Assembly: GCA_903937035.1 (NCBI GenBank)
Contig: CAIZXS010000017.1
Location: 660-64,659, forward strand
Length of the DNA: 64,000 bases
Direction: 5' to 3'
Source: an uncultured bacterium
GTDB lineage: Bacteria; Patescibacteriota; Minisyncoccia; Moranbacterales; UBA2206
This document shows, in pieces, positions 45,762-60,711 of this stretch. Below the pieces are notes generated by a model. The model saw only the letters and a program-made list of their open reading frames with translations, made no database searches and was not told the DNA's origin. Numbering within the stretch: position 1 is the first letter of the stretch; each line of letters starts with the position of its first letter. A program made the translations under genes and the position numbers.

Positions 45762-45832
45762 GCGGGATTCGTACAGTGGTAGTACGGGAGTCTCCAAAAC
45801 TTCTAACGTAGGTTCGATTCCTACATCCCGTG
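45762..45832 (+). tRNA. tRNA-Trp (anticodon CCA); G1.U72 wobble in acceptor stem
   Basis: Acceptor GCGGGAT/ATCCCGT; anticodon loop CTCCAAA; T-arm GTAGG-TTCGATT-CCTAC. Confidence 0.7.
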
Positions 45833-45855
45833 CACTTGAGAATAGAACCAACTTG

Positions 45856-45880
45856 AGGCTTGGATAAGGCCTCTTTTTGG
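45856..45880 (+). terminator. Hairpin plus T-run downstream of tRNA-Trp (prototype of the hairpin in the island repeats)
   Basis: GAGGCTTGGATAAGGCCTC followed by TTTTT. Confidence 0.55.
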
Positions 45881-45976
45881 TTCTAATTTTTTTAGAAAAA
45901 TATAAAACCCCGAATTTATGGGGTTTTGGTTTTGGTAGATATTCGCGAACGAACTCGCAAATATCTACCATTAAGG

Positions 45977-48451
45977 TTACCAGTCGTATAGTTCGAGGAA
46001 TTCCTCGAACGCTTTTTTAAAGGTTCTTTTTTCCACTTCTTTCCGTCCGACTTTACCCATGGTCTGGAGCATCTCTTTGTCCAGGGCGATAGCCGCGATG
46101 ATCTGGTCGCGCAGAGCATAGACACTCAATCCTTCGACGATAAAACCATCAAAGCCATGGCGGACATTTTCTTTTGGTCCGCCGATGTCAGTGACAATGA
46201 TTGGTAGGCCACAGGCATGGGATTCCAGGACGACATTGCCGAATGTATCTTTGGTCGAAGGAAAGACGAATAGGTCTGCTTTCTGGTAGCACTGAACCAA
46301 TTCTGCTCCCTCGAGATAGCCGGTAAATTCTACGGGGAAGCCACGGAGTTTTTTTTCCATTTTTTCCCGATAAGGACCATCGCCGACGACGATTAATTTG
46401 ATGTTGCTGCGGTTGAGTAGCTTAAATGCGTCAACTAAGATGGGCAGGTCTTTGTCTGAACTGATTCGGCCGACGTAGAGCAAGCGGAAGATTCCATCAT
46501 CTGGTTTTGGTCCTGGCTGGAAACGCTCCGTGTCGACACCTTTGGGGACGAGAACGATTTTTTCCGGTGGGACGGCGTTACGGATCAAGTCATCTCGGAA
46601 ATACAGTGACGGCACAAAAATCTTGTCACAATAACGATAAAACCAGCGGAGATATTTCCACATCGCATCTTCAGCCATCGGTTCTTCAGTGTAGGTACGG
46701 ATATATTGTGGCAGGGCGGTGTGATGGGTGATGTAGAGCGGAACCTTGAAGATAGTGGAGAGGCCGAGGCCGAACAGTCCCATACTGGCTGGCGTCGCTA
46801 CATGGATGTGAGTGAAATCTTGTTGGTAAAAATATTCCAGCATTTCAAGCATCGGTGGCCAGATCATCTTTACTTCCGGGTAAAATGGCAAGTCGCAGGA
46901 GGCGACAGGCGGGAAAACTTTTTCACCCCATTGACTTTCTTGGTTATCGCAGATAATTAGTTTATAATCGAGTGCCAGCTCTTCCGCTAGTATCTGCATT
47001 TGTTGTAGATTACGCGACACACCGTTCATTGCATGAAAGGTGTCAGTCAGATGAGCGACTCTCAATTTTTTCAATTCATACCCTGGTTTTTCCAATATTT
47101 CCGCGGCTAATTTTCTGGCGCCTAACCGAGTGTCATGAAAGATAAAATAGGCCAGATAAAATCCGATTGGAAAGACGCTGGCGAGGACGGCCAACGATAG
47201 GACACTTCGCATAATTTCAAAAATATCGCCTTTTTTGTTTGCTTCAACGATGTGATTGATGATATGCCGGATGCTTTCGTCCAGGACGCTAGAGAAAAGC
47301 TCGAACCATCCTTTGGAATGGTTCGGTTGCTTGCTATCTGATTTATCCTCGGCTACTTTTGTCAGGATGCTTATCAGCACTGATTGAAAATCGGAACTGT
47401 CTACTTGTTGGCTACCGAAAAAAGTTTTTGCTTTTACGAAAAGTGATTTCAGGAAGCGTTTATGACCGTTACTCTGGTCGAGAAAAGTATCAATTATTTG
47501 CAGTGCCTCGTTGTAGGGAATGATCTCTTCTAGAGCAGTTGAATGTTTGATCTTTTGATAGAGGATGCTGTAGAGATCCTGAGCCATATCCATCGGCACC
47601 GAACCTTGGCCGATAATCTCGATTTTTTCCGGTGAGGAAAAAATGTCAGCGATAGTTTTACCGGGGTGCCAAGTATAAACTTTCGCCCCTTTTAGTCCGG
47701 AGTGGTCATCACTGCCACCGATAAAAAACTTTTTCAGTGGATTGGTGAGTGCGTCTTTGATTCCAAACTTTTGGGCGATGGCTTCCAGTTGATCGCCTGA
47801 GACTTCTCTGACTACTTTCCGGACGAGCTGATTAAACTCTTCGCTTCGTGCGCCGTTAATCTCAAAAAAATCAAACAGTACCAAAAGTTGCCGAACATGG
47901 TCAGCGGTCAAAAGATTGTTGACCGAATAAAGCGGGTGTGCCAGTGCGTGATTGATCTTCTCAGTACGTAAATAGCGAACTAGGCCGTAGATGTTGAAGC
48001 GCAGTTCGATGGTCTTGTGGTACTGTGCGACAGTGATCTCGTAGACTAATACATGGACTTTGCAGCCATCGAGAAAGTGTCCGGTAATCTCAGCGCAGAG
48101 CGGACAAAATAGACCGGCTGCATTTAGATCCAGACAACCCTGAATCTCATTATGATCAGTCAGGGCAATTTCACTCATTCCTTTCTCTTTTAATTTTCTG
48201 TAGTAATCCTTTGGATCCACCAGTGATTCAGGATAAAATGGGAATTTGTGCCTGACCCAATTGGTTGGTTCTGTCGAATGTCGCGAATGTCCGTGCAGAT
48301 CAATCAGTATTCCTACTTGATCTGATCCTAACTCTTTTATCGTCATTCCTATCCTCCTTGTTTCGGGTTGTGATTTTGTTGGTAAGGGGCCGTTTCTCCT
48401 TATGCTTGAAGTGTAGCTAAGGGAAGCGGAATGGTCAAATTTATCAAGCAA
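45977..48451 (-). CDS. Fusion protein: N-terminal PHP phosphoesterase domain plus C-terminal family-1 (GT4-type) glycosyltransferase
   Basis: PHP motifs DLHGHSRHS...TDHN...GGSDDHS; GT-B C-terminal domain with E-x7-E-like region FPSTKDTFGNVVLESHACGLP. True start may be the internal M at ~48346. Confidence 0.75.
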   Translation of the reverse strand: MLDKFDHSASLSYTSSIRRNGPLPTKSQPETRRIGMTIKELGSDQVGILIDLHGHSRHSTEPTNWVRHKFPFYPESLVDPKDYYRKLKEKGMSEIALTDHNEIQGCLDLNAAGLFCPLCAEITGHFLDGCKVHVLVYEITVAQYHKTIELRFNIYGLVRYLRTEKINHALAHPLYSVNNLLTADHVRQLLVLFDFFEINGARSEEFNQLVRKVVREVSGDQLEAIAQKFGIKDALTNPLKKFFIGGSDDHSGLKGAKVYTWHPGKTIADIFSSPEKIEIIGQGSVPMDMAQDLYSILYQKIKHSTALEEIIPYNEALQIIDTFLDQSNGHKRFLKSLFVKAKTFFGSQQVDSSDFQSVLISILTKVAEDKSDSKQPNHSKGWFELFSSVLDESIRHIINHIVEANKKGDIFEIMRSVLSLAVLASVFPIGFYLAYFIFHDTRLGARKLAAEILEKPGYELKKLRVAHLTDTFHAMNGVSRNLQQMQILAEELALDYKLIICDNQESQWGEKVFPPVASCDLPFYPEVKMIWPPMLEMLEYFYQQDFTHIHVATPASMGLFGLGLSTIFKVPLYITHHTALPQYIRTYTEEPMAEDAMWKYLRWFYRYCDKIFVPSLYFRDDLIRNAVPPEKIVLVPKGVDTERFQPGPKPDDGIFRLLYVGRISSDKDLPILVDAFKLLNRSNIKLIVVGDGPYREKMEKKLRGFPVEFTGYLEGAELVQCYQKADLFVFPSTKDTFGNVVLESHACGLPIIVTDIGGPKENVRHGFDGFIVEGLSVYALRDQIIAAIALDKEMLQTMGKVGRKEVEKRTFKKAFEEFLELYDW

Positions 48452-48673
48452 TAAAAATAATTGCTTTGAATAAAAGCAAAATTAATAGTTTTATTATTTT
48501 TTTACGTCTTTTTCTTTTGGCTGTTCCAACTTATCTAGTATAGCAGATATTGATAATCAAGGCTCAACTTGAACAATCTTCACGTCTATGCTACGTTTAA
48601 GCAGTTCATTGACAAATAGGAGTGGTGAAAATAAGCCTGGAAACATCAGATCAACAATAAAAAGGAGGCTGGG

Positions 48674-49210
48674 ATGAAACAAGTCCGAAGAATTATGATC
48701 TTTTACGCTTTTTTGATCATGACCAATATTGGCATCTTCGGATATGAATATTGGATCGTCAGGATGTCTTTTGGTCAGACCATCCTGGCTAGGTGTGTCA
48801 CTTTGGTGACGGACGTGTTTGAGGCAATCTTTTTTATCGACTCACAATTTTTGAAAAGGATCTCATTGGCTATCATCAGGAAACTGCCCGTAAAGATTGT
48901 CTGGAGCTGGTTGGAAAGCGGTTTACGCTTAGCGCTCATTGGACCGACGGTCTATCTGGTCAAGATGATTATACTGAATATTTTTCTGTTATTTCGGAGT
49001 TTCAACATCAATCCAATCAAGACAGAAAAAGTTCTATTCGCCTATTGTATTTCATTGGTGCTTTCTTTCTGTTGGGGAGCAGCCTTTGATCTTTTTCTGG
49101 AAGATTGGGCCAATAAATTTCTTTGTTTTTTACGGACAAAACTGTCCAGAGAGAAGAAATCTCAATGTGGGAAGGGAAATGAACTATGTGCAAAAAAAGT
49201 GAATGGTTAG
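48674..49210 (+). CDS. Four-TM membrane protein, overlaps the sigma-factor gene start
   Basis: 178 aa hydrophobic ORF; 25-nt overlap with the downstream sigma gene suggests co-transcription. Confidence 0.45.
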   Translation: MKQVRRIMIFYAFLIMTNIGIFGYEYWIVRMSFGQTILARCVTLVTDVFEAIFFIDSQFLKRISLAIIRKLPVKIVWSWLESGLRLALIGPTVYLVKMIILNIFLLFRSFNINPIKTEKVLFAYCISLVLSFCWGAAFDLFLEDWANKFLCFLRTKLSREKKSQCGKGNELCAKKVNG

Positions 49211-50061
49211 AAAATGATATAACCCAGGCGTATCTTCGCGAGGTTAAAAGTAGCCCCTTGCTCTCCCGAGAAGAAGAAGTTGAATTGGCAAAAAGAATCG
49301 AACTAGGAGATGAGCAAGCGCTTAAGCTGTTTATCCAGTCGAATCTTCGGCTAGTTATTCGTTTCGCCAAAATCTATTCACGCTACAACAAGCATGTGCA
49401 ATTGCTTGATTGCATTCAAGAAGGCAATATTGGGCTGATGCAAGCAGTGAAAGGATTCGATTGGCGGCTAGGTTATAAATTTTCCACTTACGCTACTGAT
49501 TGGATTCGCCAAGGAATTATGAAAGCCACTATATCTGACAATGGGGCGATCCATCTTCCATCTGAAGTGGGAGAGGCCATAATAAAGCTTAGAAAGACGG
49601 AAAGTGAGCTGTTGAGAATCTTGGTTCGGCAGCCATCAATAGAAGAGATTGCGGAGCGAATGGGTATCTCGCAAGAGGAAGTTTTAATGTTAATTAGGAA
49701 GATGCGGAGAGCGAAATCTTTGAACGATCCAATGTCTGATGAAGATGATGCTGTGGAATTTGGGGATATGCAGCCAGACAAGGCGAGCTGTTCTGTTGAA
49801 GATCTTGTCATTAACAAGGAGCTTGGGGAAAAAATTTCACAGGCGATGGATGCTCTGACTGAAGAAGAAAGGCAAATTTTTTTGCTTATGGTAAGCGGAG
49901 ATCTCTTTATAAAAGAGATTGCAGAAAAGCTTTGCCTGAGGCCGGAAAAAATCAGGCAGATCTATAGTGTTGCTATTAGAAAGTTAAGGGAAGTAAAAGA
50001 ACTCAAACCATACCGAAATACTGTTTCCAAGATTAAAATGGATAAATGCCGTAAAAAATAG
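49186..50061 (+). CDS. Sigma-70 family RNA polymerase sigma factor (regions 1.2, 2, 3, 4; not ECF)
   Basis: Region 2 LVIRFAKIYS...LLDCIQEGNIGLMQAVKGFDWRLGYKFSTYATDWIRQGI; region 4 HTH EIAEKLCLRPEKIRQIYSVAIRKLRE. Confidence 0.85.
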   Translation: MCKKSEWLENDITQAYLREVKSSPLLSREEEVELAKRIELGDEQALKLFIQSNLRLVIRFAKIYSRYNKHVQLLDCIQEGNIGLMQAVKGFDWRLGYKFSTYATDWIRQGIMKATISDNGAIHLPSEVGEAIIKLRKTESELLRILVRQPSIEEIAERMGISQEEVLMLIRKMRRAKSLNDPMSDEDDAVEFGDMQPDKASCSVEDLVINKELGEKISQAMDALTEEERQIFLLMVSGDLFIKEIAEKLCLRPEKIRQIYSVAIRKLREVKELKPYRNTVSKIKMDKCRKK

Positions 50062-50104
50062 AAGAACTCTGGACGCAATGCGTTCAGGGTTCTTTTCTTT
50101 TTGC

Positions 50105-50279
50105 ATAGTGAGTGACACGGTGGGGTAATTTATATTTGCGGACTTAAATCAGGGATATGAATATATTCCTTTCTACTCATAAAAATAGTTCTAACGTCCT
50201 TCACTATCCCGTGCATGACACAAAAAGAGGCTTATTTAAGCCTGTTTTTTGATAGGGCAGTGGGAAGTTAGAACTTTTT
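50105..50279 (+). repeat. Island repeat R1: degenerate tRNA-Trp copy (50151-50215), hairpin (50222-50250), GGGCAGTGGGAAGTTAGAAC box
   Basis: Segment ATAAAAATAGTTCTAACGTCCTTCACTATCCCGTGCA against tRNA-Trp CAAAACTTCTAACGT...ATCCCGTGCA; about 175 bp shared with R3. Confidence 0.8.
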
Positions 50280-50290
50280 GAAAAGTTGTA

Positions 50291-50318
50291 TTGACTGTTT
50301 TTCTTAATATGGTATACT
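50291..50318 (+). promoter_or_regulatory. Sigma-70 promoter TTGACT-16-TGGTATACT for fic-1
   Basis: Near-consensus -35 and extended -10, 33 nt upstream of the ATG. Confidence 0.55.
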
Positions 50319-50351
50319 GCCAATAAAGAGCTAAACCATATTAAAAAACAT

Positions 50352-51296
50352 ATGCAATATTTAGATGAAAAAATTCAAAAGAGAATTGATGACAAATTAG
50401 CATTGTTAAATTCCTTTCGACCACTTCCGATCAGTTCTGTCAGAAAACTCAAAGAACAATTTAAGATAGAAATGACCTATAATTCGAATGCGATTGAAGG
50501 AAATAGTCTAACACTTAAGGAAACCTATCTTGTTATCAACGAAGGACTGACCATTAAAGGCAAGCCGTTAAAAGATCATCTTGAGGCTAAAAATCATCAA
50601 GAAGCCTTAGAATACCTGTATGATTTAGTGGAAAAGGATAAAAAGAATACTTTTTCAGAAAACTTGATTCGTTCACTTAATCAGATAGTGCAGCAAAATA
50701 TTGATAAAGAGTGGGCGGGAAGATATCGAAATAGTGGGGTGATTATCGGTGGTGCCGACCACAGACCACCGGAAGCATTGGAGATTCCAAAGCTTATGCG
50801 AGATCTTGTTGGGTGGGTTGGGAGTAATAATAAAAAAATGCATCCGGTGGACTTGGCAAGCATAGTTCATCACAAGCTTGTTTTTATTCATCCTTTTTTT
50901 GATGGCAATGGTAGAACATCAAGATTAGTTATGAATATTCTTTTAATGCAATCGGGTTTGCCGTTGGTAATTGTTTTGAAAAATGACCGAAAAAAATACT
51001 ATCAAACTTTATCATTTGCAGATAAGGGGGACTACGTGCCTTTTGTAAATTTCATTGCTCGTGCAGTTGAAAGAACATTGGATATCTATCTGAAAATACT
51101 TTCACCGAGCAAAAAAGGCAATGAAAAATATATTTCTCTTGCTGATTTGGCCAAAGAGTCGAAATTTACAGAAAAATATCTCAATCTTCTGGCGCGCAGT
51201 GGAAAATTGGAAGCCCACAAAGAAGGACGTAATTGGATTACGTCCAAAGATGCGCTTAAAAGATACATGGATAGTCGAGAAAGGGTGAGGAAATAA
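50352..51296 (+). CDS. Fic/DOC family protein, class II (intramolecular inhibitory motif) with C-terminal winged-helix
   Basis: Active site HPFFDGNGRTSR; N-terminal SNAIEGN matches (S/T)xxxE(G/N). Confidence 0.88.
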   Translation: MQYLDEKIQKRIDDKLALLNSFRPLPISSVRKLKEQFKIEMTYNSNAIEGNSLTLKETYLVINEGLTIKGKPLKDHLEAKNHQEALEYLYDLVEKDKKNTFSENLIRSLNQIVQQNIDKEWAGRYRNSGVIIGGADHRPPEALEIPKLMRDLVGWVGSNNKKMHPVDLASIVHHKLVFIHPFFDGNGRTSRLVMNILLMQSGLPLVIVLKNDRKKYYQTLSFADKGDYVPFVNFIARAVERTLDIYLKILSPSKKGNEKYISLADLAKESKFTEKYLNLLARSGKLEAHKEGRNWITSKDALKRYMDSRERVRK

Positions 51297-51358
51297 AAAC
51301 CAGCCCAGAAAAAGTTACCTACCGGCTAAAAAAGAATTGGCTCACCCCAAATTCAAGT

Positions 51359-51473
51359 CTGGAATATAAATATACTCTTTCCTTTTCATAAAAATAATTC
51401 TAACGTCCTTTACTACGGCGTGCACTTGAGAATATAACCAAAATTGAGGCTTATTTAAGCCTCAATTTTGGTT
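51359..51473 (+). repeat. Island repeat R2: degenerate tRNA-Trp copy (51359-51424) plus perfect 15-bp-stem hairpin (51436-51473); closest to the native tRNA-Trp 3' flank
   Basis: GTGCACTTGAGAATATAACCAAAATTGAGGCTTATTTAAGCCTC against the native flank GTGCACTTGAGAATAGAACCAACTTGAGGCTTGGATAAGGCCTC at 45825-45873. Confidence 0.85.
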
Positions 51474-51540
51474 ATAATAGTTAGTATTGCATATAAAAAG
51501 TGGTTAATTTATCTTATTTTATCACAATATTAACGATATA

Positions 51541-51581
51541 TTGACAATAATACGTTAATACTGTATACTTAATGTATAATA
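51541..51581 (+). promoter_or_regulatory. Sigma-70 promoter TTGACA-17-TATACT (plus downstream TATAAT) for fic-2
   Basis: Consensus hexamers. Confidence 0.55.
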
Positions 51582-51594
51582 TTAACTAAAAAAT

Positions 51595-52494
51595 ATGCCA
51601 ATTACAAATCCGATTAAAAAGCGCATTGGGGCACTAAAAAGTGAATATGACAAGCTTCGCAAAGGAAAAGAGTCCCTGCTGGTTTTACTTGATGAGGCTG
51701 AAATTCCAGAGAGTGTTTATAATTCTAATGCTATTGAAAATTCAACGCTGACATTAAAAGAAACTGAAAAAATTCTCTTGGAAATGGAGGTTTCTCGCGA
51801 TGTGAGTGTGCGGGAAGTTTATGAGGCAAAAAATTTATCTAGAGTTATTAATTATATCCGAGATAAATCCAAAGAAAAAGAGATTGATAAGGAATTAATT
51901 TTGTTACTTCATCAAATGCTAATTGGTGGAATCAATGATGAATTTGCTGGGAGATTTAGAAGTGCAGGTGAGTATGTGCGAGTTGGGACACACGTGGCTC
52001 CAGCTCCAGAAAAAGTTGCCGCGATGATTGAAGATCTATTAAACTATTATACCAATAATTTAGATAAATATTTTTTAGATAAAATTGCCAAATTTCATCT
52101 GGATTTCGAAACAATACATCCTTTTTGTGATGGTAATGGAAGAATTGGTAGAGTTCTTTTGAATTATCAATTTTTGAGACTTGGACTCCCAATGATAATT
52201 ATTCGTGATAAAGAAAAAGCGCAATACTATAAATCATTTGGCGATTATCGTTATCAAGAAAATTCAAAGACAATGGAAAAGGTTTTAGCACTTGCACTCA
52301 CGGAATCACTGCACAAAAGAATCGCATATCTAAAAGGTGAGGAAATTATTAAATTGTCTGAATATGCAAAAAAGAATGAGCAATCAGTGCATGCACTCCT
52401 GAATGCTGCTAGAAGACAAAATATTCCCGCTTTCAGAGAAAAAGGTGTTTGGAAAATTGGTGTGTTATTTGCATATAATAATAAACAGACGTAG
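51595..52494 (+). CDS. Fic/DOC family protein, class II, second tandem copy
   Basis: Active site HPFCDGNGRIGR; inhibitory motif SNAIENS. Confidence 0.88.
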   Translation: MPITNPIKKRIGALKSEYDKLRKGKESLLVLLDEAEIPESVYNSNAIENSTLTLKETEKILLEMEVSRDVSVREVYEAKNLSRVINYIRDKSKEKEIDKELILLLHQMLIGGINDEFAGRFRSAGEYVRVGTHVAPAPEKVAAMIEDLLNYYTNNLDKYFLDKIAKFHLDFETIHPFCDGNGRIGRVLLNYQFLRLGLPMIIIRDKEKAQYYKSFGDYRYQENSKTMEKVLALALTESLHKRIAYLKGEEIIKLSEYAKKNEQSVHALLNAARRQNIPAFREKGVWKIGVLFAYNNKQT

Positions 52495-52680
52495 CTGATG
52501 GGCATTACTCGGTAGTTTACGGACTGGATAATGAAAATATCTATCTTCAAAATCCAGAGACTGGTGGTTCGCGAAAGCTAGATAAAGAAGATTTTATGAC
52601 AGTTTGGTTTGATTTCACTGGAAAGTATATCAATGCCGATGAATTGATAATTAGCCAAATCATTGCAATTTATCGCTAAT
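52485..52680 (+). pseudogene. 3' remnant of a C39-like (papain-fold) peptidase gene, no start codon
   Basis: Open frame reads DGHYSVVYGLDNENIYLQNPETGGSRKLDKEDFMTVWFDFTG, typical of the C-terminus of Peptidase_C39-like domains. It abuts the upstream arm of repeat R3. Confidence 0.5.
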
Positions 52681-52684
52681 AATA

Positions 52685-52853
52685 TAGCGAGTGACACTCT
52701 GGGGTGGTTATGTTTTTAAACCAAAATCGGGAATATAAATATGTTCTTTCCTCTGCATAAAAATAGTTCTAACGTTTCGGACTATGACGTGCAGACATAA
52801 AAAAGAGGCTTTGATTGGTCTCTTTTTTGGTGGGGCAGTGGGAAGTTAGAACT
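52685..52853 (+). repeat. Island repeat R3: degenerate tRNA-Trp copy (52728-52793), hairpin, GGGCAGTGGGAAGTTAGAAC box
   Basis: Collinear with R1 over ~170 bp. Confidence 0.8.
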
Positions 52854-52889: not shown

Positions 52890-53687
52890 ATGAGCAAAAA
52901 AATCGCCTTTGGCGTAATTGGTGTTCTTGGTTTTTTAAAAATCATCTTGTTAATTATTACGGGCAGTATTTTCGGTATTGTTTATTGTTCAACATGGCTG
53001 GCTTGGTTTTTGCTAATCATATTTGCAATATTTATTTGGTTTTTTTATGGTTTCGCTTTTAAAACTCTTTATTCTTGGAAATTTATAATAATTTTCTTGG
53101 TAACAATTACAGCTATCATCTGTGTAATCGGTTTTTTTACTCATGCGATAAGATTTGGAAGTGATACAGGCGTACCAAATAATTTATCCAGCTCTGATGC
53201 TAAATTAAAAAAAGTTAACAGCGCTAATGATGTGGTATTAGTTGATTGCACTGCCACTAAAGATGCTAAAATTGAAAAAGTAGCAGGTTGGAATACTTAT
53301 CTATATCCAGCAAAAAAAACTAGTCCCATGCCGGATCCTGATAAGAAGATGGATCTGCAGGAATCATATTCATTAGCTAAATTGTTAAACAAAACAGAAG
53401 AAGGTAATGTTTATTATAAGGTTGAGCTAATAAATAGGGGTTATATACCCAGAGAAACCAAGAAGATTCTTGAGATTTGTAATGAAGATAATAAAACGAC
53501 AGAATATAACACTACCGTTACCACTAAGGATGGCGGTGCTTCGGAAAATGTTGTTGCCTCTGTCGGAAGCATCTTTTCATATTTTGTTCCTAGTAAAACT
53601 GGAAAATATCGTATTGATGCTTGGCTTTTTGCTAATGGGAAATGGATACTCACTGATAGGATTGAGCAGATAAATATTGTTGATTAG
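52890..53687 (+). CDS. Membrane protein with three N-terminal TM helices and a soluble C-terminal domain, hypothetical
   Basis: 265 aa; hydrophobic N-terminal third. Confidence 0.55.
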   Translation: MSKKIAFGVIGVLGFLKIILLIITGSIFGIVYCSTWLAWFLLIIFAIFIWFFYGFAFKTLYSWKFIIIFLVTITAIICVIGFFTHAIRFGSDTGVPNNLSSSDAKLKKVNSANDVVLVDCTATKDAKIEKVAGWNTYLYPAKKTSPMPDPDKKMDLQESYSLAKLLNKTEEGNVYYKVELINRGYIPRETKKILEICNEDNKTTEYNTTVTTKDGGASENVVASVGSIFSYFVPSKTGKYRIDAWLFANGKWILTDRIEQINIVD

Positions 53688-53745: not shown

Positions 53746-55104
53746 TTGAATCCAGATATTATGCGTAAAATTATAATTATTCTCATAATACTATTATTGA
53801 ATTTGAGTTTAATTTTACCAGCATTGGCCGAGGAAAAAATTTTTCCACAATCGGATTTTTTTCTCTATCTGGGAATTAGAAATGCGGCAGCTGGAATAGG
53901 TCCTGGTAAAATTGAAAAGATTTTATTTAGTTCGTCTCATGTAGACATGCGGGCTGGTAAAATAACTGCTGATCGGAATATTCCAATTAATTTTACACAA
54001 GGAGTTGAGGATGTCAGTGGCAATGCTCACTTAAGAATGGATGGGGATTATGACAAGAGTGATGGCAGGCTCTCTGGTTATTTTTCTATTGTCTCCAATG
54101 TGAAAGTTGTCTGGCACGGGGCTTTTGACAGCAATACGGATTGGGTGGAAACGATTAACGGATCGTTTAGTGGCCAGGTTGTCGATGAAAAGGTGATTAT
54201 ACGCTACAATGGAAAATCCAGCACAGAATCACATGAAGGAATGGCAGACGGCAAAGTAAGGAATAGATCTGAAGTCAATGACTATACTTCAGTTGTTGCT
54301 TGGCGTATGAATGACTACAAAGCACCAGAAGTACCAGTAGTGTCAGAAATTGATAAGGAATTTTTAGACAAAGACGGAAAGCCAGTTGATTCGCGGGCAC
54401 GCTTTGGATCACGAGATGGGCAGGTGGAAATTCATATTCCAGGTGAGCCGGAGGACGTATGGCACATTGCTACTCCAATAACAGTCATACCATATGGCGC
54501 TAGAATCAAGACAGATGACGATAGCGAGGCGATTATTTCCTTTCCTGATCATACGATATTTAAAATGAAACCAGAATCGACGATAATAATATCTAAGCCA
54601 CCAACAGATAATGATAGTAAATGGAAATTAGTAGCCGGAAATATTTGGGTTAATGTAAAAAAAGTGTTGAAAGATGGAACTATGGAGATTGATGTAAATC
54701 AGGCAGTGGCTGGAAAGAAGGGCACGACATTTGTTGCCTCGCAAATAGGAGACAACTCAGTATTCAAGGTTATTGAAGGCGAGATGTTTATCAAGGCCAA
54801 AAATAGTGACGAAACTGCCGATATTGTTGGTGGTCAACAAGCGACGATTGATAGCACTGGTAGGATAGTAAAAGAAAACTTTGATATTATTGCCGAGCAA
54901 GATACTTGGGATAAATCGGAAAAAGTTGATTTTGCAATGTTGGAAAAAGCCTTGCCGGCAGAAAGCACAGCGGAATTAGTGATTCAAGGTTCTCGTGATG
55001 ATAAACCTAAAAATAAAAACATTTTCTATATAATTGGCGGGTTGATTTTGATTGGCGGAATTTTTGTAGGTTTTTTTAAAAGAAAAAAAGTAAATATAAG
55101 TTAA
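53746..55104 (+). CDS. Secreted/anchored FecR-domain protein (signal peptide and C-terminal TM)
   Basis: FecR-like beta-rich segment ISFPDHTIFKMKPESTIII...VAGNIWVNVKK...AVAGKKGTTFVASQ...VIEGEMFI. Confidence 0.6.
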   Translation: MNPDIMRKIIIILIILLLNLSLILPALAEEKIFPQSDFFLYLGIRNAAAGIGPGKIEKILFSSSHVDMRAGKITADRNIPINFTQGVEDVSGNAHLRMDGDYDKSDGRLSGYFSIVSNVKVVWHGAFDSNTDWVETINGSFSGQVVDEKVIIRYNGKSSTESHEGMADGKVRNRSEVNDYTSVVAWRMNDYKAPEVPVVSEIDKEFLDKDGKPVDSRARFGSRDGQVEIHIPGEPEDVWHIATPITVIPYGARIKTDDDSEAIISFPDHTIFKMKPESTIIISKPPTDNDSKWKLVAGNIWVNVKKVLKDGTMEIDVNQAVAGKKGTTFVASQIGDNSVFKVIEGEMFIKAKNSDETADIVGGQQATIDSTGRIVKENFDIIAEQDTWDKSEKVDFAMLEKALPAESTAELVIQGSRDDKPKNKNIFYIIGGLILIGGIFVGFFKRKKVNIS

Positions 55105-55201
55105 TTAACCAAATCTACCATCGTAGCAGAAAGGCTTGGAATATAAACATCTTGGCTATTTTCTTGAAATAAATTTTTAACGTCCCTTATTATCCCGTGC
55201 A
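55105..55201 (+). repeat. Island repeat R4: TAATTAACCAAAT box at the stop codon plus degenerate tRNA-Trp copy (55138-55201)
   Basis: GGAATATAAACAT...TTTTTAACGTCCCTTATTATCCCGTGCA. Confidence 0.75.
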
Positions 55202-55253: not shown

Positions 55254-55262
55254 TGGTATAAT
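55254..55262 (+). promoter_or_regulatory. Extended -10 element TGGTATAAT
   Basis: 44 nt upstream of the ATG at 55306. Confidence 0.4.
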
Positions 55263-55305
55263 GAAATAGTAAAAATTCTTTTTTAAAAAGTAAAATAGAA
55301 AAATA

Positions 55306-56805
55306 ATGAAAAATAAGACATCGATAGTTGCCGCTCTTTTTTTAGCGGTAATGATTTTTATGGGCCTGAAAATTGATATGGCACGGGCAGGCGATCCTTT
55401 TGCTGCTTCTTTCGTAACTCCTCCAACTCCAGTAGACCTCTCTACTATTGATGGCACATCTGCAGAAATATCAGTTTCAACGAACAAGTCCGCTCAACAC
55501 TATGTTTTGAATAATTTTGATAATTCACTGATTGGCTGGTGGAGAGGGGAAGGTGACGCATTGGATGCTTCAGGGAATGGAAATGATGGGACGTTAATCG
55601 GGGGCGCGACTTATGCCACCGGAAAGTTTGGGCAAGCTTTCAGTTTGGATGGCGAGGATGACTATATTGATATGGAAAGTTCTTCAAGTTTGAATTTGCA
55701 ACATAGCTTTACAATGTCTGCTTGGGTTAAAACCGATACTATTTTTATAGGGACTCAAAGAATTCTTGGAAGAGTAGGGGCGCCCATTGGCGAAGACTTA
55801 GGTGGTGATGGATATGGCTGGGGGATAGTGGGGAATCAACTTAGATTTACAACATTTAACAAGCAGGATTACGACAGTACACTTGCAGATATCAATCCTG
55901 ATACGTGGTATCACTTGGCGATTGTTTTCGATTCAAATAATGCTGTTAGTTTCTATGTGGATGGCGAATATCTTGAAACTATTGCCGGATATGAGTCTGG
56001 GGATGATGTTTCGGAGGCAAATTTTACAATAGGTAATACTACATATTTCCAAGAACCGTGGAGTGGCTCTATTGACGATGTCGCTATTTTTGACAGAGTT
56101 TTATCGGAAGGCGAGATTAGTTCGCTATATAATGCTTTTGCAACTCAATACGATAACACTTTTACTGGTTTGGCTCGTGGTGAGCACACAACTCAAGCGC
56201 ACGCCGTTGATTTAGATGGAAATAAAGCTTCAACTGAAGAAAGGACGTTTACTGTTGGAGAGGAATCCGAAGCTGTCGAAGAAGAAGCGCAAAAAGCCCA
56301 CATTGATTCCTGGGAGTATTCTTTATTTACTGACCAAAGTTCATGTCCAGAAAAACTAAAACTTGAAATCAAGGGCAAACATTTCAAAGCGAATGCTAAA
56401 GTTAAGATTGGTAACAAAAAAGCCGCAGTGGTAGACAAAAAATCCAGCAAAAAACTAGTTGCCAGTTTTTGTATCGACAAGCTTCTTGATAATAAGCCAG
56501 GAACAAAACGCACAGTGAGTGTCAAAAATCCTGATACTGACACCGAAAAAGCGGACAAAAAGATTGATCTTTCTGTCCTCACCGGATTCAGTAATAACAA
56601 TATTCCACAAGGCAATTCTGAATGGGTCAAAAACATTCAAAGCGCTCTAGTGAAGCTGGGTTATCTTGATAGCCAATATGTAACCGGAGTTTATGGACCA
56701 ATCACTACCAAAGCTGTCAAAAAATTTCAAGCAGACAATGGCATAGAACAAACAGGTACGGTGGGACCGATCACGAAAGCTAAGCTCGTAGAGAAGGTGA
56801 AATAG
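55306..56805 (+). CDS. Secreted LamG/concanavalin-A-like lectin domain protein with C-terminal peptidoglycan-binding domain
   Basis: Signal peptide; LamG-type motifs FTMSAWVKTD...WYHLAIVFD...FYVDGEY...GSIDDVAIFDRVLSEGEI; PG_binding_1-like VKNIQSALVKLGYL...GVYGPITTKAVKKFQADNGIEQTG. Confidence 0.75.
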   Translation: MKNKTSIVAALFLAVMIFMGLKIDMARAGDPFAASFVTPPTPVDLSTIDGTSAEISVSTNKSAQHYVLNNFDNSLIGWWRGEGDALDASGNGNDGTLIGGATYATGKFGQAFSLDGEDDYIDMESSSSLNLQHSFTMSAWVKTDTIFIGTQRILGRVGAPIGEDLGGDGYGWGIVGNQLRFTTFNKQDYDSTLADINPDTWYHLAIVFDSNNAVSFYVDGEYLETIAGYESGDDVSEANFTIGNTTYFQEPWSGSIDDVAIFDRVLSEGEISSLYNAFATQYDNTFTGLARGEHTTQAHAVDLDGNKASTEERTFTVGEESEAVEEEAQKAHIDSWEYSLFTDQSSCPEKLKLEIKGKHFKANAKVKIGNKKAAVVDKKSSKKLVASFCIDKLLDNKPGTKRTVSVKNPDTDTEKADKKIDLSVLTGFSNNNIPQGNSEWVKNIQSALVKLGYLDSQYVTGVYGPITTKAVKKFQADNGIEQTGTVGPITKAKLVEKVK

Positions 56806-56925
56806 GACTAATTAACCAAATTCACCGCTGTGGGAAAGAGATCTGGAATATAAACATGCTTCTTTTTGTTCGTCTTAGCTACCCGTGCAATCAAAAAACA
56901 AGGCTTATATAGAGCCTTATTTGAG
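56806..56925 (+). repeat. Island repeat R5: TAATTAACCAAAT box, shortened tRNA-Trp-like copy (56845-56889), hairpin (56900-56918)
   Basis: GGAATATAAACAT...CTTAGCTACCCGTGCA. Confidence 0.7.
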
Positions 56926-56980
56926 TGTCAGCGGTATTGACAAAATAGTAAATGAAGTATATGCTAATTAGTTAATGATA

Positions 56981-57008
56981 GGTCTTTGACAATTTACGAA
57001 GAAATGCA
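56981..57008 (+). promoter_or_regulatory. Shared 26-28-nt box GGTCTTTGACAATTTAYGARAAATG upstream of histidine-kinase gene 1 (second copy at 60712-60737)
   Basis: Near-identical sequence containing TTGACA precedes both hybrid kinase genes. Confidence 0.5.
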
Positions 57009-57317
57009 AGTAAAAAGGAGGTGAGAAGCTTGAAGGTTGATTTTATTCGGTTGTTTCTGAGACTTTGTTGTCTGGGATTCATCTTGGGCAGATTCAAAAA
57101 AAGAGAATTAAGGAATGGGCGGGAACGAGGTTTCGTGACCGCGGTTTGTCCTCGGCCAGCAGGCCGCTGGATCATGGGAAATGATTTTCTTTATGAATCT
57201 GAACGGGCCATCTCGAAAGAAATTAAAAAAGGAGACTGGGTTGTCTACTTTGGTTATCGTTCGTCTTCTGGATGGAAGGCGAGGTTGGTTGCAAAAATAT
57301 TTTGAAAGGAGGAAGTT

Positions 57318-60077
57318 ATGAACAAGAAAGAGATGCTTGGAAATATTGAAGCACGGTTTGCGTTTAGTATTCAGATGAGAGAAAGTCAGGAGAGATGCAG
57401 TGCAATTTTTGACCAGTCTCCGATAGCGATAGAGTTTTACGATGCCGCTGGCGGTTTGGTTGCAGTAAATAGGGCCTGTCTTGATTTGTTCGGTGTGGTG
57501 AATGAGGCCGAGGTCCTTGGATTCAAGATGTTTGAAGACCCTAACATTACTGATGAGGTAAAAACAAGACTGTTGAATAAGGAAATAGTAAGGTTTGCGG
57601 TTGACTTCAGCTTTGATAAAGTGAAACAACTGAAGCTTTATGAAACCACCCATTCAGGGATAAAGACACTGGATTGGTGTATTTCACCGCTCATAGAAGA
57701 AAGTTTGTTAATAGGGTATGTTATGCACATACAGGATATCACCGAACGTAAGCTGGCAGAGGAAGCAGTTCGAAAAAGCGAAGAAAACTATCGACTTATC
57801 GCCGACAATACCGGTGACGTTATTACGGTACTGAATATGGACTTGCAATTCACCTATATCAGTCCGTCAGTTTTTCAGCTGAGCGGATTTACGGTTGAAG
57901 AAGTTTTAAATAAGTCCGTTGATCAGATAGTAACAGCCGGTTCATTGTCGGTATTTGTTAAGAATTTCGAAGAGGAGCTGGTATTGGAAGCTTCTGGAAA
58001 TGCGAACCCTCAAAGAATTCGTACAATTGAAGTGGAGGAGTATCGAAAAGACGGTTCCTTATTCTGGATGGAGATAAATTTGTCATTCATACGCAATCAG
58101 GAAGGGATGCCCTTGGGGGTAATTGCAGTTATCCGTGATGTTTCTAGCCGCAAGAAAACAGAAATAGCATTACATAGGAGTGAAGAAATGTATCGGTTGA
58201 TAGCCGATAATATGGCTGATGTCATCTCAATCATAGATTTGAATTTAAGGTTCACGTATGTCAGTCCTTCTATTTCTCGCCTTTACGGAATTCCAGCTGA
58301 AGAGCTGATGAATCAGCCTATTGATAAACTAATAACTCCTAAATCCATGAAGCATGTGCTATCAATTTTCGAGAAAGAAATAGCATTGGAGGCGCTAGGA
58401 ACGGCAGATCCTCAAAGGATCACCACGTTGGAGTTAGAGCATTATTGGAAAGATGCTACCCCTTTGTTTTGGATGGAAGTCAGTTCGTCCTTTTTACGTG
58501 ACCAGGACAAGAAAGTTATGGGAATGATTGCGGTGAGCCGTGACATCACAGAGCGCAAGCAGACGGATGAAACTCTGCTGAAAGAGCGCGAACGTCTCAA
58601 GGGTGTCATAGAAGGTACTAATGTCGGGATCTGGGAATGGAATGTCCAGACCGGGGAAGTAGTTTTTAATGATCGTTGGGCTGAAATCATTGGGTACAGC
58701 TTGGATGAAATTTCTCCAGTATCGATTGAGACTTGGACGAAATACGCTCATCCTGACGATGTGGAGAGCAGTGGTGCGTTGCTTGAAAAGCATTTCCGTG
58801 GCGAGATTGGCTATTATGAGTTCGATTCTCGTATGAAACATAAAGACGGAAATTGGATCTGGGTTCTGGATAGAGGAAAGGTGGCATCCTGGACAGAAGA
58901 TGGGAAGCCACTGATGATGATGGGGACGCATCAAGACATCACTGAACGCAAAAGGATGCGAAAGGCATTGATTGAGGCGGAACGCCTTAGCGCCATTGGA
59001 GAGCTTTCATCGGGCGTGGCGCATGACTTCAATAATGCCCTGGAGGTGATAAATGGAAATTTGGAAATGGCATTGTTTGTTCCAAATATTCCTCAGGAAG
59101 TCACAGAGTTGATCAAGCGTTCCAGAAAAAGTGCGAATGATGCGGCAGCTCGTATTCGACAACTGCAACGTTTCACGAAAAAAGAGCAGCATAGCGAATA
59201 TCAACCGCTTGATCTCAATGTGGTTCTGGATGAAGCAATTCTTCAGACCAGACCGCTCTGGAAGGATATGGCGGAAAAAAAGGGACTGCAAATTTCTTTC
59301 CAAAGAACCCATGGAAAGATAAGACATGTCGATGGAGACTTGGGAGAGATCGGTAGTGCTTTCCATAATCTCATCAAAAATGCTATTGAAGCTATGCCTA
59401 TTGGCGGTGTGATTAATATTGAAACAGGAATGATTGGTGAAAAAGTCTTTGTCAGGATTGGAGATGCCGGGATAGGGATGGATGATGAAATTAAAAAAAG
59501 AATTTTTCAACCATTTTTTTCAACCAAAGGGCTCGAGCCAGGACGAGGACTCGGAATGAGTGCCGTTGCCTCTATTGTCAGCGATCATGGCGGAGTGGTT
59601 TATGTCAAAGAAACGATTGTCGGAAAAGGCACAACGATTGAAATGTTGCTTCCCGTTGGAACGTTAAGAGCGATAGAGGTAAAAATCATCGAACCGAGTG
59701 TTCAAAAAGACCTTATCCGCGTGCTCTGGGTGGATGATGAAGAAGCCATTAGGACATTGGGACGGATGTATATGGAAAAATTAGGTTATTTTTCCGACAT
59801 AGCCAATGGAGGACTGGAAGCGCTAGAGCTCTTGCGGAATAATCATTATGATCTGGTCATCAGTGACATTGGAATGCCAGGGATGGATGGCTGGCAGTTA
59901 GCGGAGGCGATAAAAAATACGCACCCTGAAGTGAAGGTTGTGATTGTCTCTGGCTGGGGATCAGAGGCTGGCACTGATAAGAAGATCAGATATGGCGTCA
60001 GTCATATCTTAGGAAAGCCCACAAGCATGAATAAACTAAAAGAGATGATTGGAGCGGTGTTTCAATCAAAAATGTAA
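57318..60077 (+). CDS. Hybrid sensor histidine kinase (multiple PAS, HisKA, HATPase_c, C-terminal receiver)
   Basis: HisKA H-box LSSGVAHDFNNAL; ATPase G-boxes; receiver VLWVDDEEAI...DLVISDIGMPGMDG. RBS GGAGG before the ATG. Confidence 0.88.
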   Translation: MNKKEMLGNIEARFAFSIQMRESQERCSAIFDQSPIAIEFYDAAGGLVAVNRACLDLFGVVNEAEVLGFKMFEDPNITDEVKTRLLNKEIVRFAVDFSFDKVKQLKLYETTHSGIKTLDWCISPLIEESLLIGYVMHIQDITERKLAEEAVRKSEENYRLIADNTGDVITVLNMDLQFTYISPSVFQLSGFTVEEVLNKSVDQIVTAGSLSVFVKNFEEELVLEASGNANPQRIRTIEVEEYRKDGSLFWMEINLSFIRNQEGMPLGVIAVIRDVSSRKKTEIALHRSEEMYRLIADNMADVISIIDLNLRFTYVSPSISRLYGIPAEELMNQPIDKLITPKSMKHVLSIFEKEIALEALGTADPQRITTLELEHYWKDATPLFWMEVSSSFLRDQDKKVMGMIAVSRDITERKQTDETLLKERERLKGVIEGTNVGIWEWNVQTGEVVFNDRWAEIIGYSLDEISPVSIETWTKYAHPDDVESSGALLEKHFRGEIGYYEFDSRMKHKDGNWIWVLDRGKVASWTEDGKPLMMMGTHQDITERKRMRKALIEAERLSAIGELSSGVAHDFNNALEVINGNLEMALFVPNIPQEVTELIKRSRKSANDAAARIRQLQRFTKKEQHSEYQPLDLNVVLDEAILQTRPLWKDMAEKKGLQISFQRTHGKIRHVDGDLGEIGSAFHNLIKNAIEAMPIGGVINIETGMIGEKVFVRIGDAGIGMDDEIKKRIFQPFFSTKGLEPGRGLGMSAVASIVSDHGGVVYVKETIVGKGTTIEMLLPVGTLRAIEVKIIEPSVQKDLIRVLWVDDEEAIRTLGRMYMEKLGYFSDIANGGLEALELLRNNHYDLVISDIGMPGMDGWQLAEAIKNTHPEVKVVIVSGWGSEAGTDKKIRYGVSHILGKPTSMNKLKEMIGAVFQSKM

Positions 60078-60092
60078 CTGTTTTTCAAACAC

Positions 60093-60124
60093 CCTGGTGT
60101 CATAATTGATGCCAGGGTTTTTTA
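60093..60124 (+). terminator. Rho-independent terminator
   Basis: CCCTGG...CCAGGG hairpin followed by T7. Confidence 0.7.
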
Positions 60125-60158
60125 TTCGCGAATAATGATGAGAGGGGGCGTTTTTCTA

Positions 60159-60197
60159 TATAAAAATAGTTCTAACCTGCCTACTGGCAGACAGGCG
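60159..60197 (+). repeat. Island repeat R6 (partial): tRNA-Trp-like ATAAAAATAGTTCTAAC fused to the palindromic motif CCTGCCTACTGGCAGACAGGCG
   Basis: The two repeat families are joined at one site. Confidence 0.7.
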
Positions 60198-60233
60198 TTC
60201 CTTTCTAAAAAAACGTTAACCTATTTTACTACG

Positions 60234-60533
60234 ATGCGCATTGATGACGATGCTAAACTGGTTAAATTTTCAGAAATGTTGATTGAGAAAGGATCTGGTT
60301 TTACTTCCGGTGGAAATGATTTTGATGGTGGAATGTTAACCGGTTTTGGCTTTAAAACCGAAAGTTACAATATGATGAGTGGTGCTCGCGAAGGCAATAT
60401 TGAAGAGCAATCTAATTTGTTCGGAAAAAAGTTTGAGTATAAGTTTGATTGCAAGGAAATTCGGGCAAAAATTGAAGAAATAGCCAAGGCATCCGGGTAT
60501 GAGTTTGAATATCAGATTTTGCCAGTAAAATAA
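60234..60533 (+). CDS. Small hypothetical protein; start placed at the internal Met because the upstream ORF part is translated repeat
   Basis: The ORF track starts at 60135, but residues 9-22 are encoded by repeat R6. Confidence 0.4.
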   Translation: MRIDDDAKLVKFSEMLIEKGSGFTSGGNDFDGGMLTGFGFKTESYNMMSGAREGNIEEQSNLFGKKFEYKFDCKEIRAKIEEIAKASGYEFEYQILPVK

Positions 60534-60588
60534 CCGAGTTAAGTCGGTGGGCGTAAATCGCTTTATTTCTGTGGCATGTATCAAAGCT

Positions 60589-60614
60589 AAAGGCTCATTC
60601 GAGCCTTTTTTTGA
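60589..60614 (+). terminator. Rho-independent terminator
   Basis: AGGCTC-ATTC-GAGCCT hairpin followed by T7. Confidence 0.65.
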
Positions 60615-60711
60615 TAGTGGATATAAATTTAAATCGGTGCTATGATTCACCAAATAGCAGGGATTGACGATGGTTATAAATAACTAGCAACCCATTAAGT
60701 AAGCTATTTAT

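Follow-up and report, generated by a model that had tools for sequence, protein, structure and literature searches.

What are the repeats that separate the genes behind a tRNA-Trp gene in a 64-kb stretch of DNA from an uncultured bacterium of the Moranbacterales (contig CAIZXS010000017.1)? A sequence-only reading of this stretch had taken them for degenerate copies of the tRNA gene, left behind by serial integration or acting as the sites of an integron-like array. We find instead a unit of ~100-180 bases in which an A+T-rich module (...GGAATATAAATAT...CATAAAAATAGTTCTAACGTCC..AC.A) is joined to the final 8-10 nt of tRNA-Trp (ATCCCGTGCA), in most cases with a terminator hairpin behind them. With slightly better than even confidence, we interpret these units as att-type recombination sites at the boundaries of small, integrase-less cassettes that were serially integrated at the 3′ end of the tRNA by a recombinase acting in trans. 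All coordinates are positions in the whole 64-kb stretch (the window), and L-numbers designate loci scanned from other genomes and metagenomes. The tRNA and the units are as follows, with the basis of each assignment in brackets.

45762-45833, + strand: tRNA-Trp(CCA), head of the array (ARAGORN; Rfam tRNA model, 61.6 bits)
45834-45890, + strand: 3′ flank of tRNA-Trp, a "type 2" long terminator hairpin, TAGAACCAAC..GAGGCTT..AAGGCCTC..TTGGTTCTA (sequence, inverted repeat, terminator scan)
50105-50275, + strand: R1, complete unit (repeat finder, profile, folding)
51355-51478, + strand: R2 (alignment to the tRNA region, inverted repeat)
52684-52853, + strand: R3, complete unit with R1-like architecture (repeat finder, profile, folding)
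55102-55201, + strand: R4 (repeat finder, profile)
56809-56922, + strand: R5 (repeat finder; profile E = 1.6e-15)
60150-60241, + strand: R6, degenerate copy (profile E = 0.01-0.02)
~60530-60640, + strand: R7, newly added, internally deleted copy (aligned with R1, R3 and an L028 copy that has a similar deletion)

Complete units of the R1 and R3 type measure ~170-235 bp. In R1, a 5′ extension (ATAGTGAG..GTGGGGTAA, 50105-50145) leads into the module (50146-50205, with AGTTCTAAC at 50187-50195), which is followed by the core ATCCCGTGCA (50206-50215, matching 45825-45834 at the end of the tRNA gene), a terminator hairpin (50228-50243) and GGGCAGTGGGAAGTTAGAACT (50255-50275). R3 has a core that has decayed to TATGACGTGCA (52783-52793) and carries GTTAGAACT at 52845-52853. 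The module of R2 (51355-51415) is joined through the core-like CGGCGTGCA (51416-51424) to a copy of the type 2 flank and hairpin of tRNA-Trp (51425-51478). R4 has an alternative 5′ extension, TAATTAACCAAATCT.., that runs from a stop codon into the module and an intact core (ATCCCGTGCA, 55192-55201); extensions of this TTAATTAACCAAATCT type also occur in L095 and L029. The proposal that R4 and R5 begin at the stop codon of the upstream gene is borne out, as TAATTAACCAAAT lies at the stop of the FecR-like gene in R4 (55102) and 4 nt past the LamG stop in R5 (56809). R5 further consists of an TAATTAACCAAATTC extension, a module with a 19-nt internal deletion that has lost the ATAAAAATAGTTCTAACGT word, the core TACCCGTGCA (56880-56889) and a hairpin (56896-56922). 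The two distal copies are more decayed: R6 is made up of ATAAAAATAGTTCTAACC, an insertion of ~40 nt and ..TTTTACTACGATGCGCA, while R7 has kept the 5′ extension and the core plus terminator (60589-60608), has lost the central module, and is followed by TGCTATGAT, a -10-like box.

The repeats are well supported statistically. A repeat finder returned four copies of 70 nt with 66-80% identity (at 50146, 51355, 52724, and 55132), a 146-nt repeat common to R1 and R3 (74% identity) and a 49-nt repeat common to R4 and R5. A profile built from R1-R5 recovered those five units from the 64-kb window at E = 1e-15 to 1e-29 and R6 at E = 0.01-0.02, and beyond the units it matched only the 3′ region of tRNA-Trp (E = 1e-4). 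The 19-mer ATAAAAATAGTTCTAACGT occurs four times, against 0.04 expected. All seven copies lie within 10.5 kb on a single strand, and profile and word scans found no copy in the remaining 53 kb of the window, nor in the 10 kb past it. The same-strand repeats first noticed by eye are thus largely where they had been placed, with R1-R5 clear by profile; R6, however, is degenerate and lies inside a called open reading frame (ORF) of 132 aa rather than in a spacer. A near-consensus sigma-70 promoter had also been proposed after each repeat, and here the outcome is mixed: the three best sigma-70-like sites of the region do lie just 3′ of R1, R2, and R5, but overall such sites are not enriched (33 found vs. 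38 expected).

How much of the unit is tRNA? The tRNA-Trp gene itself was confirmed by both ARAGORN and the Rfam tRNA model. However, the idea that the repeats are degenerate copies of it did not survive comparison: the profile of the 70-nt repeat body matches tRNA-Trp only at E = 3.2, which is not significant, and a MAFFT alignment of R0-R6 failed to reproduce the alignment on which that idea was based. Significant likeness to tRNA comes from two sources, the core ATCCCGTGCA (exact in R1 and R4) and the 3′ flank of R2. As had been claimed, R2 does copy the native flank and hairpin, since R2 with its flank aligns to the 3′ part of tRNA-Trp and its terminator with 70/94 identities (E = 4e-10 within the window). 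The proposed anticodon-loop homology reduces to a 9-mer, TTCTAACGT, common to the module and to the anticodon stem/variable loop of the window tRNA-Trp. Of the 12 tRNA-Trp genes heading arrays, 11 lack this 9-mer, the longest match mostly being 5-6 nt. In arrays behind tRNA-His the 9-mer is nonetheless unchanged, and it is also found beside tRNA-Gln-type tails. The units have no T arm and no cloverleaf, and both ARAGORN and the Rfam tRNA model were silent at the repeats. We therefore rejected whole-tRNA homology and, given the lack of collinear D-, anticodon- and T-arm similarity, the related possibility of a decayed whole tRNA-Trp (a pseudo-tRNA). On these comparisons we assign only ~8-10 nt of the unit to tRNA and regard the rest as a separate module. 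Nor is the region richer in G+C than the upstream sequence, as had been suggested (0.3985 vs. 0.3978), and its tetranucleotide usage is only slightly atypical.

The same module is present in other genomes. A scan of one genome per species for the exact word ATAAAAATARTTCTAACGT gave 26 matches, in 13 of which the full module extends over all ~70 profile positions (E down to 3e-19), and a metagenome scan for the word AAAATAGTTCTAACGTCC gave 64 loci, ~55 of them with the module. Altogether 92 copies were found in the 90 scanned loci, at least one in each of 59, with the window copies being additional to these. The carriers in the genome scan are mostly metagenome-assembled genomes (MAGs) of Patescibacteria (Moranbacteria, Paceibacterota and the Parcubacteria group), along with three MAGs labeled Bdellovibrionales, Gammaproteobacteria, and Udaeobacter. 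There are often two to five units per locus, all on one strand and 445-2918 nt apart, a spacing that is cassette-sized. The extended consensus comprises an optional 5′ extension (ATAGTGAGC..CAC.GTGGGGTAA.. or TTAATTAACCAAATCT..), then AAATCAGGAATATAAATATAC.TC.TTT.T.TTCATAAAAATAGTTCTAACGTCC.T.AC.A, and finally a variable tail. We found no description of this unit in the literature, which was searched by topic and by sequence word.

It is the variable tail that ties the units to tRNA genes. In all 24 of the 24 loci that show a tRNA for Trp, His or Gln (12 Trp, including the window, 11 His and 1 Gln), this tRNA stands upstream of the units and has their orientation. The tail changes with it, being ..CCCGTGC(A/T) behind tRNA-Trp, ..GGCACCC(CA) behind tRNA-His and ..CCCAGCCA (CCCAGC) behind tRNA-Gln. 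The longest string that a tail has in common with the end of its cognate tRNA averages 7.2 nt, compared to 4.3 nt for tRNAs of the other types. As in islands that target tRNA genes, the tRNA at one end of the insert is intact, while its 3′ segment recurs as a direct repeat at the other (ATCCCGTGCA in R1 and R4; with the flank in R2 and L087).

Between genomes the module, outside of the search word, is 71% conserved, as compared to 72% for the tRNA-Trp gene, and therefore it is not in neutral decay. In addition, the closest relative of each window copy is in another locus (83-86% identity, vs. 72-78% within the window). Together, these observations argue against neutral scars and against recent local duplication. 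They bear directly on the possibility that the units are passive scars, that is, pseudo-tRNA or attR remnants of classical integrase-bearing islands at tRNA-Trp from which all but the cargo has been lost. Islands that hold partial tRNAs from tandem integration are well documented, tycheposons (bioRxiv 10.1101/2020.12.28.424599) being one example, and decay is visible in R3, R5, R6, and R7; other tRNA pseudogenes also adjoin the array. Scars would not, however, be expected to share a non-tRNA module across many genomes and three tRNA targets, or to recur every 0.4-2.9 kb, and neither an integrase fragment in ~360 ORFs nor a phage, plasmid, or viral-contig copy was found. We consider this the least probable of the explanations weighed here. 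The earlier proposal of serial integration at tRNA-Trp stands in part. The att-type behavior, the one-directional array starting from the tRNA, the tail that follows tRNA identity, the duplication of flanks and the breakpoint after the tail all agree with it; an origin as simple scars of integrase-bearing islands is not supported, as there was no integrase or remnant of one in those neighboring ORFs.

Might the unit act as RNA? A same-strand ORF precedes 58 of 69 units, its stop codon lying a median of 84 nt before the TTCTAAC word, and a terminator hairpin follows most units. The 5′ extension ATAGTGAG resembles a -10 box and has stop codons, and G-rich 5′ extensions are able to pair with the C-rich tail. 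These features could be accounted for by an element that punctuates the transcripts, be it a 3′-untranslated region/terminator module, a gene for a small RNA or a processing signal resembling tRNA, with the tail as functional mimicry. However, RNAalifold predicted 0 pairs from 78 copies, no Rfam 15 family matched at the repeats at E <= 10, and the duplex of 5′ extension and tail (-10 kcal/mol for cognate partners) is barely above that of shuffled ones (-7.6 kcal/mol) and shows no core-type specificity. A structured RNA, a riboswitch and a tRNA-like fold were all rejected on these results, as were a long-range helix (5′ extension GTGGGGTA with tail TACCCCGT) and a GGAATAT/ATATTCC hairpin for which covariation had been seen by eye. 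Some copies, such as those of L066 and L098, also have no terminator. The gene next upstream is antisense to the unit in 11 of the 69 cases, which shows that the orientation of the unit follows the tRNA and not the cargo. Given these antisense neighbors, and the copying of sequence beyond the tRNA end that has no role in the tRNA, we read the unit as a DNA site and consider an RNA-level element very improbable. Other readings were also set aside. A reading of GGAAT..AAC..CGT as an extracytoplasmic function (ECF) or sigma-54 promoter has spacings, judged by eye, that are off both consensuses, and AAAATAGTTCTAAC as a Tn7 TnsB-binding repeat or GGAATATAAATAT as a Bacillus dif site appear to misfit in orientation and second half-site.

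If the unit is a DNA site, it could be an integron attC site or something that resembles one. As single-stranded DNA, R1 forms a bulged attC-type hairpin with a 9-bp closing stem (z = -6.4), and the stem is kept in R3. In these two units, AGTTCTAAC(GTCC) pairs with (GGAA)GTTAGAACT over 9-13 bp with a TT bulge, and GGAAGTTAGAACT, ~70 nt downstream, repeats the module's AGTTCTAACGTCC in inverted form. The integron consensus, RYYYAAC and GTTRRRY, differs by a single base from TTCTAAC and GTTAGAA, respectively. The motif GTTAGAAC is found at +65 to +73 nt in ~12 of 74 copies and at any downstream position in 17 of 74, compared to 1 of 69 in the upstream control. True integron chemistry, in which AGTTCTAACGTCC and GGAAGTTAGAACT would pair around the core and the hairpin and an IntI-like enzyme would be encoded elsewhere, as for a cluster of attC sites lacking integron integrases (CALIN), would also suit the one-directional, cassette-sized layout. 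Most copies, however, have no downstream arm, and behind real tRNAs the arm occurs with nothing to pair with; we therefore treat it as part of a P′ arm and not as proof of a folded site. The inner pairing is not kept in other core types (from our reading of L070 and L077), the conservation is of primary sequence and reaches ~100 nt upstream of the supposed attC, neither intI nor attI was found, and the cassettes have promoters and terminators of their own. Integron chemistry proper thus appears quite unlikely.

Sedentary chromosomal integrons and CALINs are among the known systems closest to the array. Both they and the array have one-directional cassettes of one to a few genes that each end in a recombination-site repeat, both have cargo rich in toxin, defense and accessory genes (here Fic, AbiEii, NUDIX, restriction-modification and Schlafen), and some units here can fold into an imperfect hairpin closed by GTT..AAC-type inverted repeats. 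The array differs in that it has no intI, attI or cassette promoter (Pc), although a CALIN by definition needs no intI, and in that it is anchored on a tRNA. Its sites keep their primary sequence from genome to genome and take in the 3′ end of the host tRNA, most copies are without the second hairpin arm, and its cassettes are not promoterless and driven by Pc.

Evidence for exchange at the unit comes from comparisons between loci. L066 and L098 share 97.8% identity across a gene, the module, and the tail GGCACCCAGC, and from the base after this tail they diverge, each into its own promoter and gene. This break right after the tail is of the kind that the sequence-only reading would have led one to look for in related genomes. 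In L087, a copy of the tRNA-His end with 95 nt of its flank lies behind a unit 1.7 kb downstream of the gene (99/104 identities). Two kinds of flank were distinguished: type 1, a terminator plus GGCAGTGGGAAGTTAGAAC, and type 2, a long hairpin TAGAACC..GGTTCTA, which in L028, L107, and L115 also stands behind tRNA-Trp. Both types are found after real tRNA-Trp genes and after units, as would be the case if exchange at the core swapped the downstream sequence. Whole cassettes recur as well. L082 and L099 have a cassette in common (88% identical) behind different units, the second Fic gene of the window has 78.7% DNA identity to a Fic cassette in L095 with different neighbors, and a block directly behind tRNA-Trp in L063 is found in L054 behind a unit and an extra NUDIX gene.

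Fic, NUDIX and Schlafen/AlbA genes recur as cargo across different arrays, and the cargo also includes AbiEii, restriction-modification genes, sensors and small metabolic operons. NUDIX genes are among the commonest array cargo elsewhere (L015, L018, L054, L061, and L095). In a Moranbacteria genome, a gene for a class I Trp/Tyr-type aminoacyl-tRNA synthetase is situated between two units behind tRNA-Trp (L029 4894-5862; L107 10770-11738), and therefore the cargo is not limited to obviously accessory genes. Two breaks in sequence were observed that may have other causes. An 8.3-kb assembly (record cBCg0bDP, sample ERZ1426737) with the same Fic-to-FecR genes leaves the window ~220 nt into the LamG gene (55306-55530), not at a repeat, and continues with a minus-strand response regulator, reflecting either a strain rearrangement or a chimeric assembly. 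L087 switches abruptly to G+C-rich sequence after its third, degenerate unit (2826-3361); either the array ends there or the assembly has a chimeric join.

Could such exchange be driven by homology alone? The units, and the tRNA end with its terminator, would then serve as portable homology, and natural transformation with RecA-type recombination would insert, swap, or delete cassettes with no dedicated enzyme. Competence genes are common in such bacteria, and DprA is encoded in the window. The long duplicated stretches (104 nt in L087, ~90 nt in R2), the mixture of flank types among sites and the lack of a recombinase near the arrays are also consistent with this. However, homology-driven exchange leaves unexplained why ~60-100 nt of non-coding sequence is conserved like a tRNA gene across divergent genomes, why orientation and anchoring at tRNA 3′ ends are so strict and why a breakpoint falls exactly at the tail; the runs of perfect identity between copies are also short (~20 nt). 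We regard it as unlikely, if the most plausible of the alternatives. One block of the window, at 8193-12525 and adjoining dprA, may encode an apparatus for the uptake or transfer of DNA, with possible relevance to the travel of cassettes. Its products are a protein that combines sigma-70 region 4 and HARE-HTH domains, a DUF8128 protein, and a coupling ATPase of TrwB/VirD4-like type that carries a zinc ribbon.

We return, then, to att-type sites used by a recombinase in trans. In the mechanism that we propose, a "P arm" would be formed by the conserved 5′ extension and the A+T-rich module ending in ..AAAATAGTTCTAACGTCC..AC.A, the core would be the last 8-12 nt of the target tRNA gene, and an often-present "P′ arm" would consist of the terminator hairpin plus GGCAGTGGGAAGTTAGAAC. 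A cassette circle with the order core, flank, promoter, gene, P arm would use its core to recombine with either the tRNA-Trp 3′ end or the core of a unit already in place, leaving the tRNA intact and the cassette bounded downstream by a P arm and core. Repeated events would pile up cassettes behind the tRNA in one orientation, and recombination could also excise or shuffle them. The enzyme would be encoded elsewhere and act in trans, and is probably a tyrosine-type recombinase of the host; older units would decay, as in the R3 core, R5, R6, and R7.

Several points weigh against this interpretation. No recombinase of a recognizable class was detected, whether in the window and the 10 kb that follow it or in ~360 ORFs near other arrays. 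The search used Pfam and PHROGs on ~65 ORFs, motif regular expressions on 359 ORFs and clustering for recurrent families. It returned no tyrosine recombinase in the genes called in the window plus 10 kb or near the 59 other arrays, no intI or attI, and no element-encoded integrase, excisionase or replication gene or remnant of one in these ORFs. The earlier statement that the window has no recombinase therefore holds after Pfam and further searches of the called genes, while its suggestion of looking for an integrase in the rest of the contig yielded none in the 10 kb beyond the window. No excised circle, empty site, or clean within-species presence/absence polymorphism was seen, and there were no terminal direct repeats in the fetched metagenome loci, among which only whole-fetched contigs could show one. 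The window tRNA-Trp carries the type 2 flank, as does R2; a series in which the newest cassette is always next to the tRNA does not predict this, and therefore an exchange of flanks between sites is needed. The first segment behind the tRNA, with its GT4 and sigma factor genes, looks like ordinary chromosomal genes, as does some cargo elsewhere (TrpRS-like, polyprenyl synthase). Lastly, the sample of loci is biased to well-kept copies as it was found by an exact module word, and its true breadth is uncertain because the three odd MAG labels may be binning errors.

A phage or plasmid origin of the unit as an attP was also considered and rejected. Blastn of the unit gave no match in 72,556 plasmids or 50,697 phages, and none of the 27 word matches in IMG/VR passed the family profile, which leaves no plasmid, phage, or viral-contig copy. 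As no recombinase is nearby and neither such a copy nor a circle was seen, we infer mobility from comparative anatomy, and any enzyme would have to act in trans; the circular intermediate, the site-specific mechanism and the type of enzyme are likewise inferences. One other protein was examined as a candidate. A conserved protein of ~200 aa with a weak N-terminal HTH_23 match is encoded just upstream of tRNA-Trp in four array loci (L018 1247-1837, L030 3697-4305, L093 1828-2481, and L115 2303-2953); it was rejected as the recombinase, being absent from the window and having no recognizable catalytic domain.

The closest parallel for accretion at a tRNA is found in the tycheposon-seeded islands of Prochlorococcus, where tRNA-targeting elements form tandem arrays that leave partial tRNAs inside the islands (bioRxiv 10.1101/2020.12.28.424599). 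These islands, and accretion of cis-mobilizable elements (CIMEs) and integrative and conjugative elements (ICEs), have in common with our arrays an intact tRNA at one end, internal partial tRNA repeats, decayed remnants and a model in which new arrivals displace older ones away from the tRNA. The elements here differ in having no integrase or replication module, in units only 0.4-2.9 kb apart and ~8-12 nt that are tRNA-derived, and in the same ~100-nt arm at every site, whichever the tRNA (Trp, His or Gln). The system therefore mixes traits of tandem tRNA-island accretion and of integrons/CALINs and is a member of neither, since it lacks the integrase by which both are recognized as well as the promoterless cassettes and attI of integrons.

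Two other groups of elements offer partial comparisons. The pdif modules of Acinetobacter plasmids and integrative mobile elements exploiting Xer (IMEX) are mobilized by host XerC/XerD. Like the cassettes here, they are small modules without a recombinase that have short conserved sites and use a host enzyme in trans, as we suppose for our arrays; in contrast to them, the unit has no dif-like 11-6-11 site that we could recognize, its target is the 3′ end of a tRNA and not dif, and the setting is chromosomal and not a plasmid. Miniature inverted-repeat transposable elements (MITEs), repetitive extragenic palindromic (REP) sequences and Correia repeats are likewise short, non-coding intergenic repeats able to supply terminators or promoters. 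In contrast to these, the units are clustered, in a single orientation and tied to tRNAs, and have no terminal inverted repeats or target-site duplications.

We tentatively suggest, as a possibility that falls short of being probable, that these arrays represent an undescribed gene-capture system of Patescibacteria-like bacteria, analogous to integrons but built from unrelated parts. A conserved ~100-nt arm, together with the 8-12 nt that end a tRNA gene (for Trp, His, Gln, and perhaps other amino acids), would be used by a chromosomal, possibly new, recombinase to stack and shuffle cassettes and exchange them between lineages. The ultra-small, host-dependent bacteria of the candidate phyla radiation (CPR) have tiny genomes with few recognized mobile elements, and how they gain and swap accessory genes is poorly known. 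If the suggestion is right, a sequence-defined cassette boundary at tRNA genes would allow their flexible gene pool to be recognized directly in metagenomes and would point to a trans-acting recombinase whose programmable core is the tRNA 3′ end. It would also provide a natural landing pad for genetics in organisms that now have no genetic tools. Even if the units were remnants of serial integration, the tRNA-Trp and tRNA-His loci would be the main gene-flux hotspots of these genomes.

The genes 3′ of tRNA-Trp in the window are nearly all on the + strand, the glycosyltransferase of the first segment being on the minus strand. They are listed below.

45977-50061: first segment, from tRNA-Trp to R1 (ORFs, Pfam)
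45977-48451, - strand: GT4/PHP glycosyltransferase, first segment (ORFs, Pfam)
48674-49210, + strand: 178-aa protein of unknown function, first segment (ORFs)
49186-50061, + strand: sigma-70-family factor, first segment (ORFs, Pfam)
50352-51296, + strand: Fic/DOC protein 1, cassette gene (Pfam)
51595-52494, + strand: Fic/DOC protein 2, cassette gene (Pfam)
52890-53687, + strand: 265-aa protein of unknown function, cassette gene (ORFs)
53746-55104, + strand: FecR-domain protein, cassette gene (ORFs, Pfam)
55306-56805, + strand: protein with LamG-like and peptidoglycan-binding domains, cassette gene (ORFs, Pfam)
57021-57305, + strand: small ORF, cassette gene (ORFs)
57318-60077, + strand: PAS hybrid histidine kinase, cassette gene (Pfam)
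60835-62763, + strand: PAS hybrid histidine kinase, last same-strand gene (Pfam)

Both Fic/DOC genes are preceded by promoter-like sequences, TTGACT-16-TATACT (50291-50318) for the first and TTGACA-17-TATACT (51541-51569) for the second. Between the second of them and R3, at 52495-52680, is an open stretch that resembles the C-terminal fragment of a lost gene (..NPETGGSRKLDKEDFMTVWFDFTGKYINADELIISQIIAIYR*) and is possibly a decayed cassette gene. The last kinase gene (60835-62763) is followed by an ordinary terminator, no unit, and then housekeeping genes.

On its other side, tRNA-Trp closes a cluster in which two tRNA-Thr genes, with tRNA-Tyr between them, are followed by rpmG, a short gene of 51 codons for ribosomal protein L33 at 45532-45687 between tRNA-Thr(GGT) and tRNA-Trp. 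The secE-nusG genes commonly follow tRNA-Trp in bacteria, and they are not in the 28 kb after tRNA-Trp of the window. Two exact tandem copies of 74 nt at 44867-45014 contain the leader and about the 5′ two-thirds of tRNA-Thr(TGT). They are 88% identical to the real tRNA-Thr (45021-45093) over 48 nt and then diverge, with no ARAGORN call, and they look like decayed tandem tRNA-Thr pseudogenes. A pseudo-tRNA-Tyr (45120-45226) stands upstream of the real tRNA-Tyr (45258-45342) and has a 44-nt part (45160-45203) that is 95% identical. Downstream of the real gene is a second copy of the tRNA-Tyr 3′ end (CCCTGCCCGGCCCA, 45380-45393, within the stretch 45355-45393), and an 18-nt inverted repeat flanks the gene (CCCTCACCAATTTTGAAC at 45209-45226 and GTTCGAAATTGGTGAGGG at 45355-45372). 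From this arrangement, an old tRNA-Tyr seems to have been split by an insertion that brought its own replacement tRNA-Tyr. Finally, the core part of the window contains three tandem NUDIX hydrolase genes at 24580-25958.

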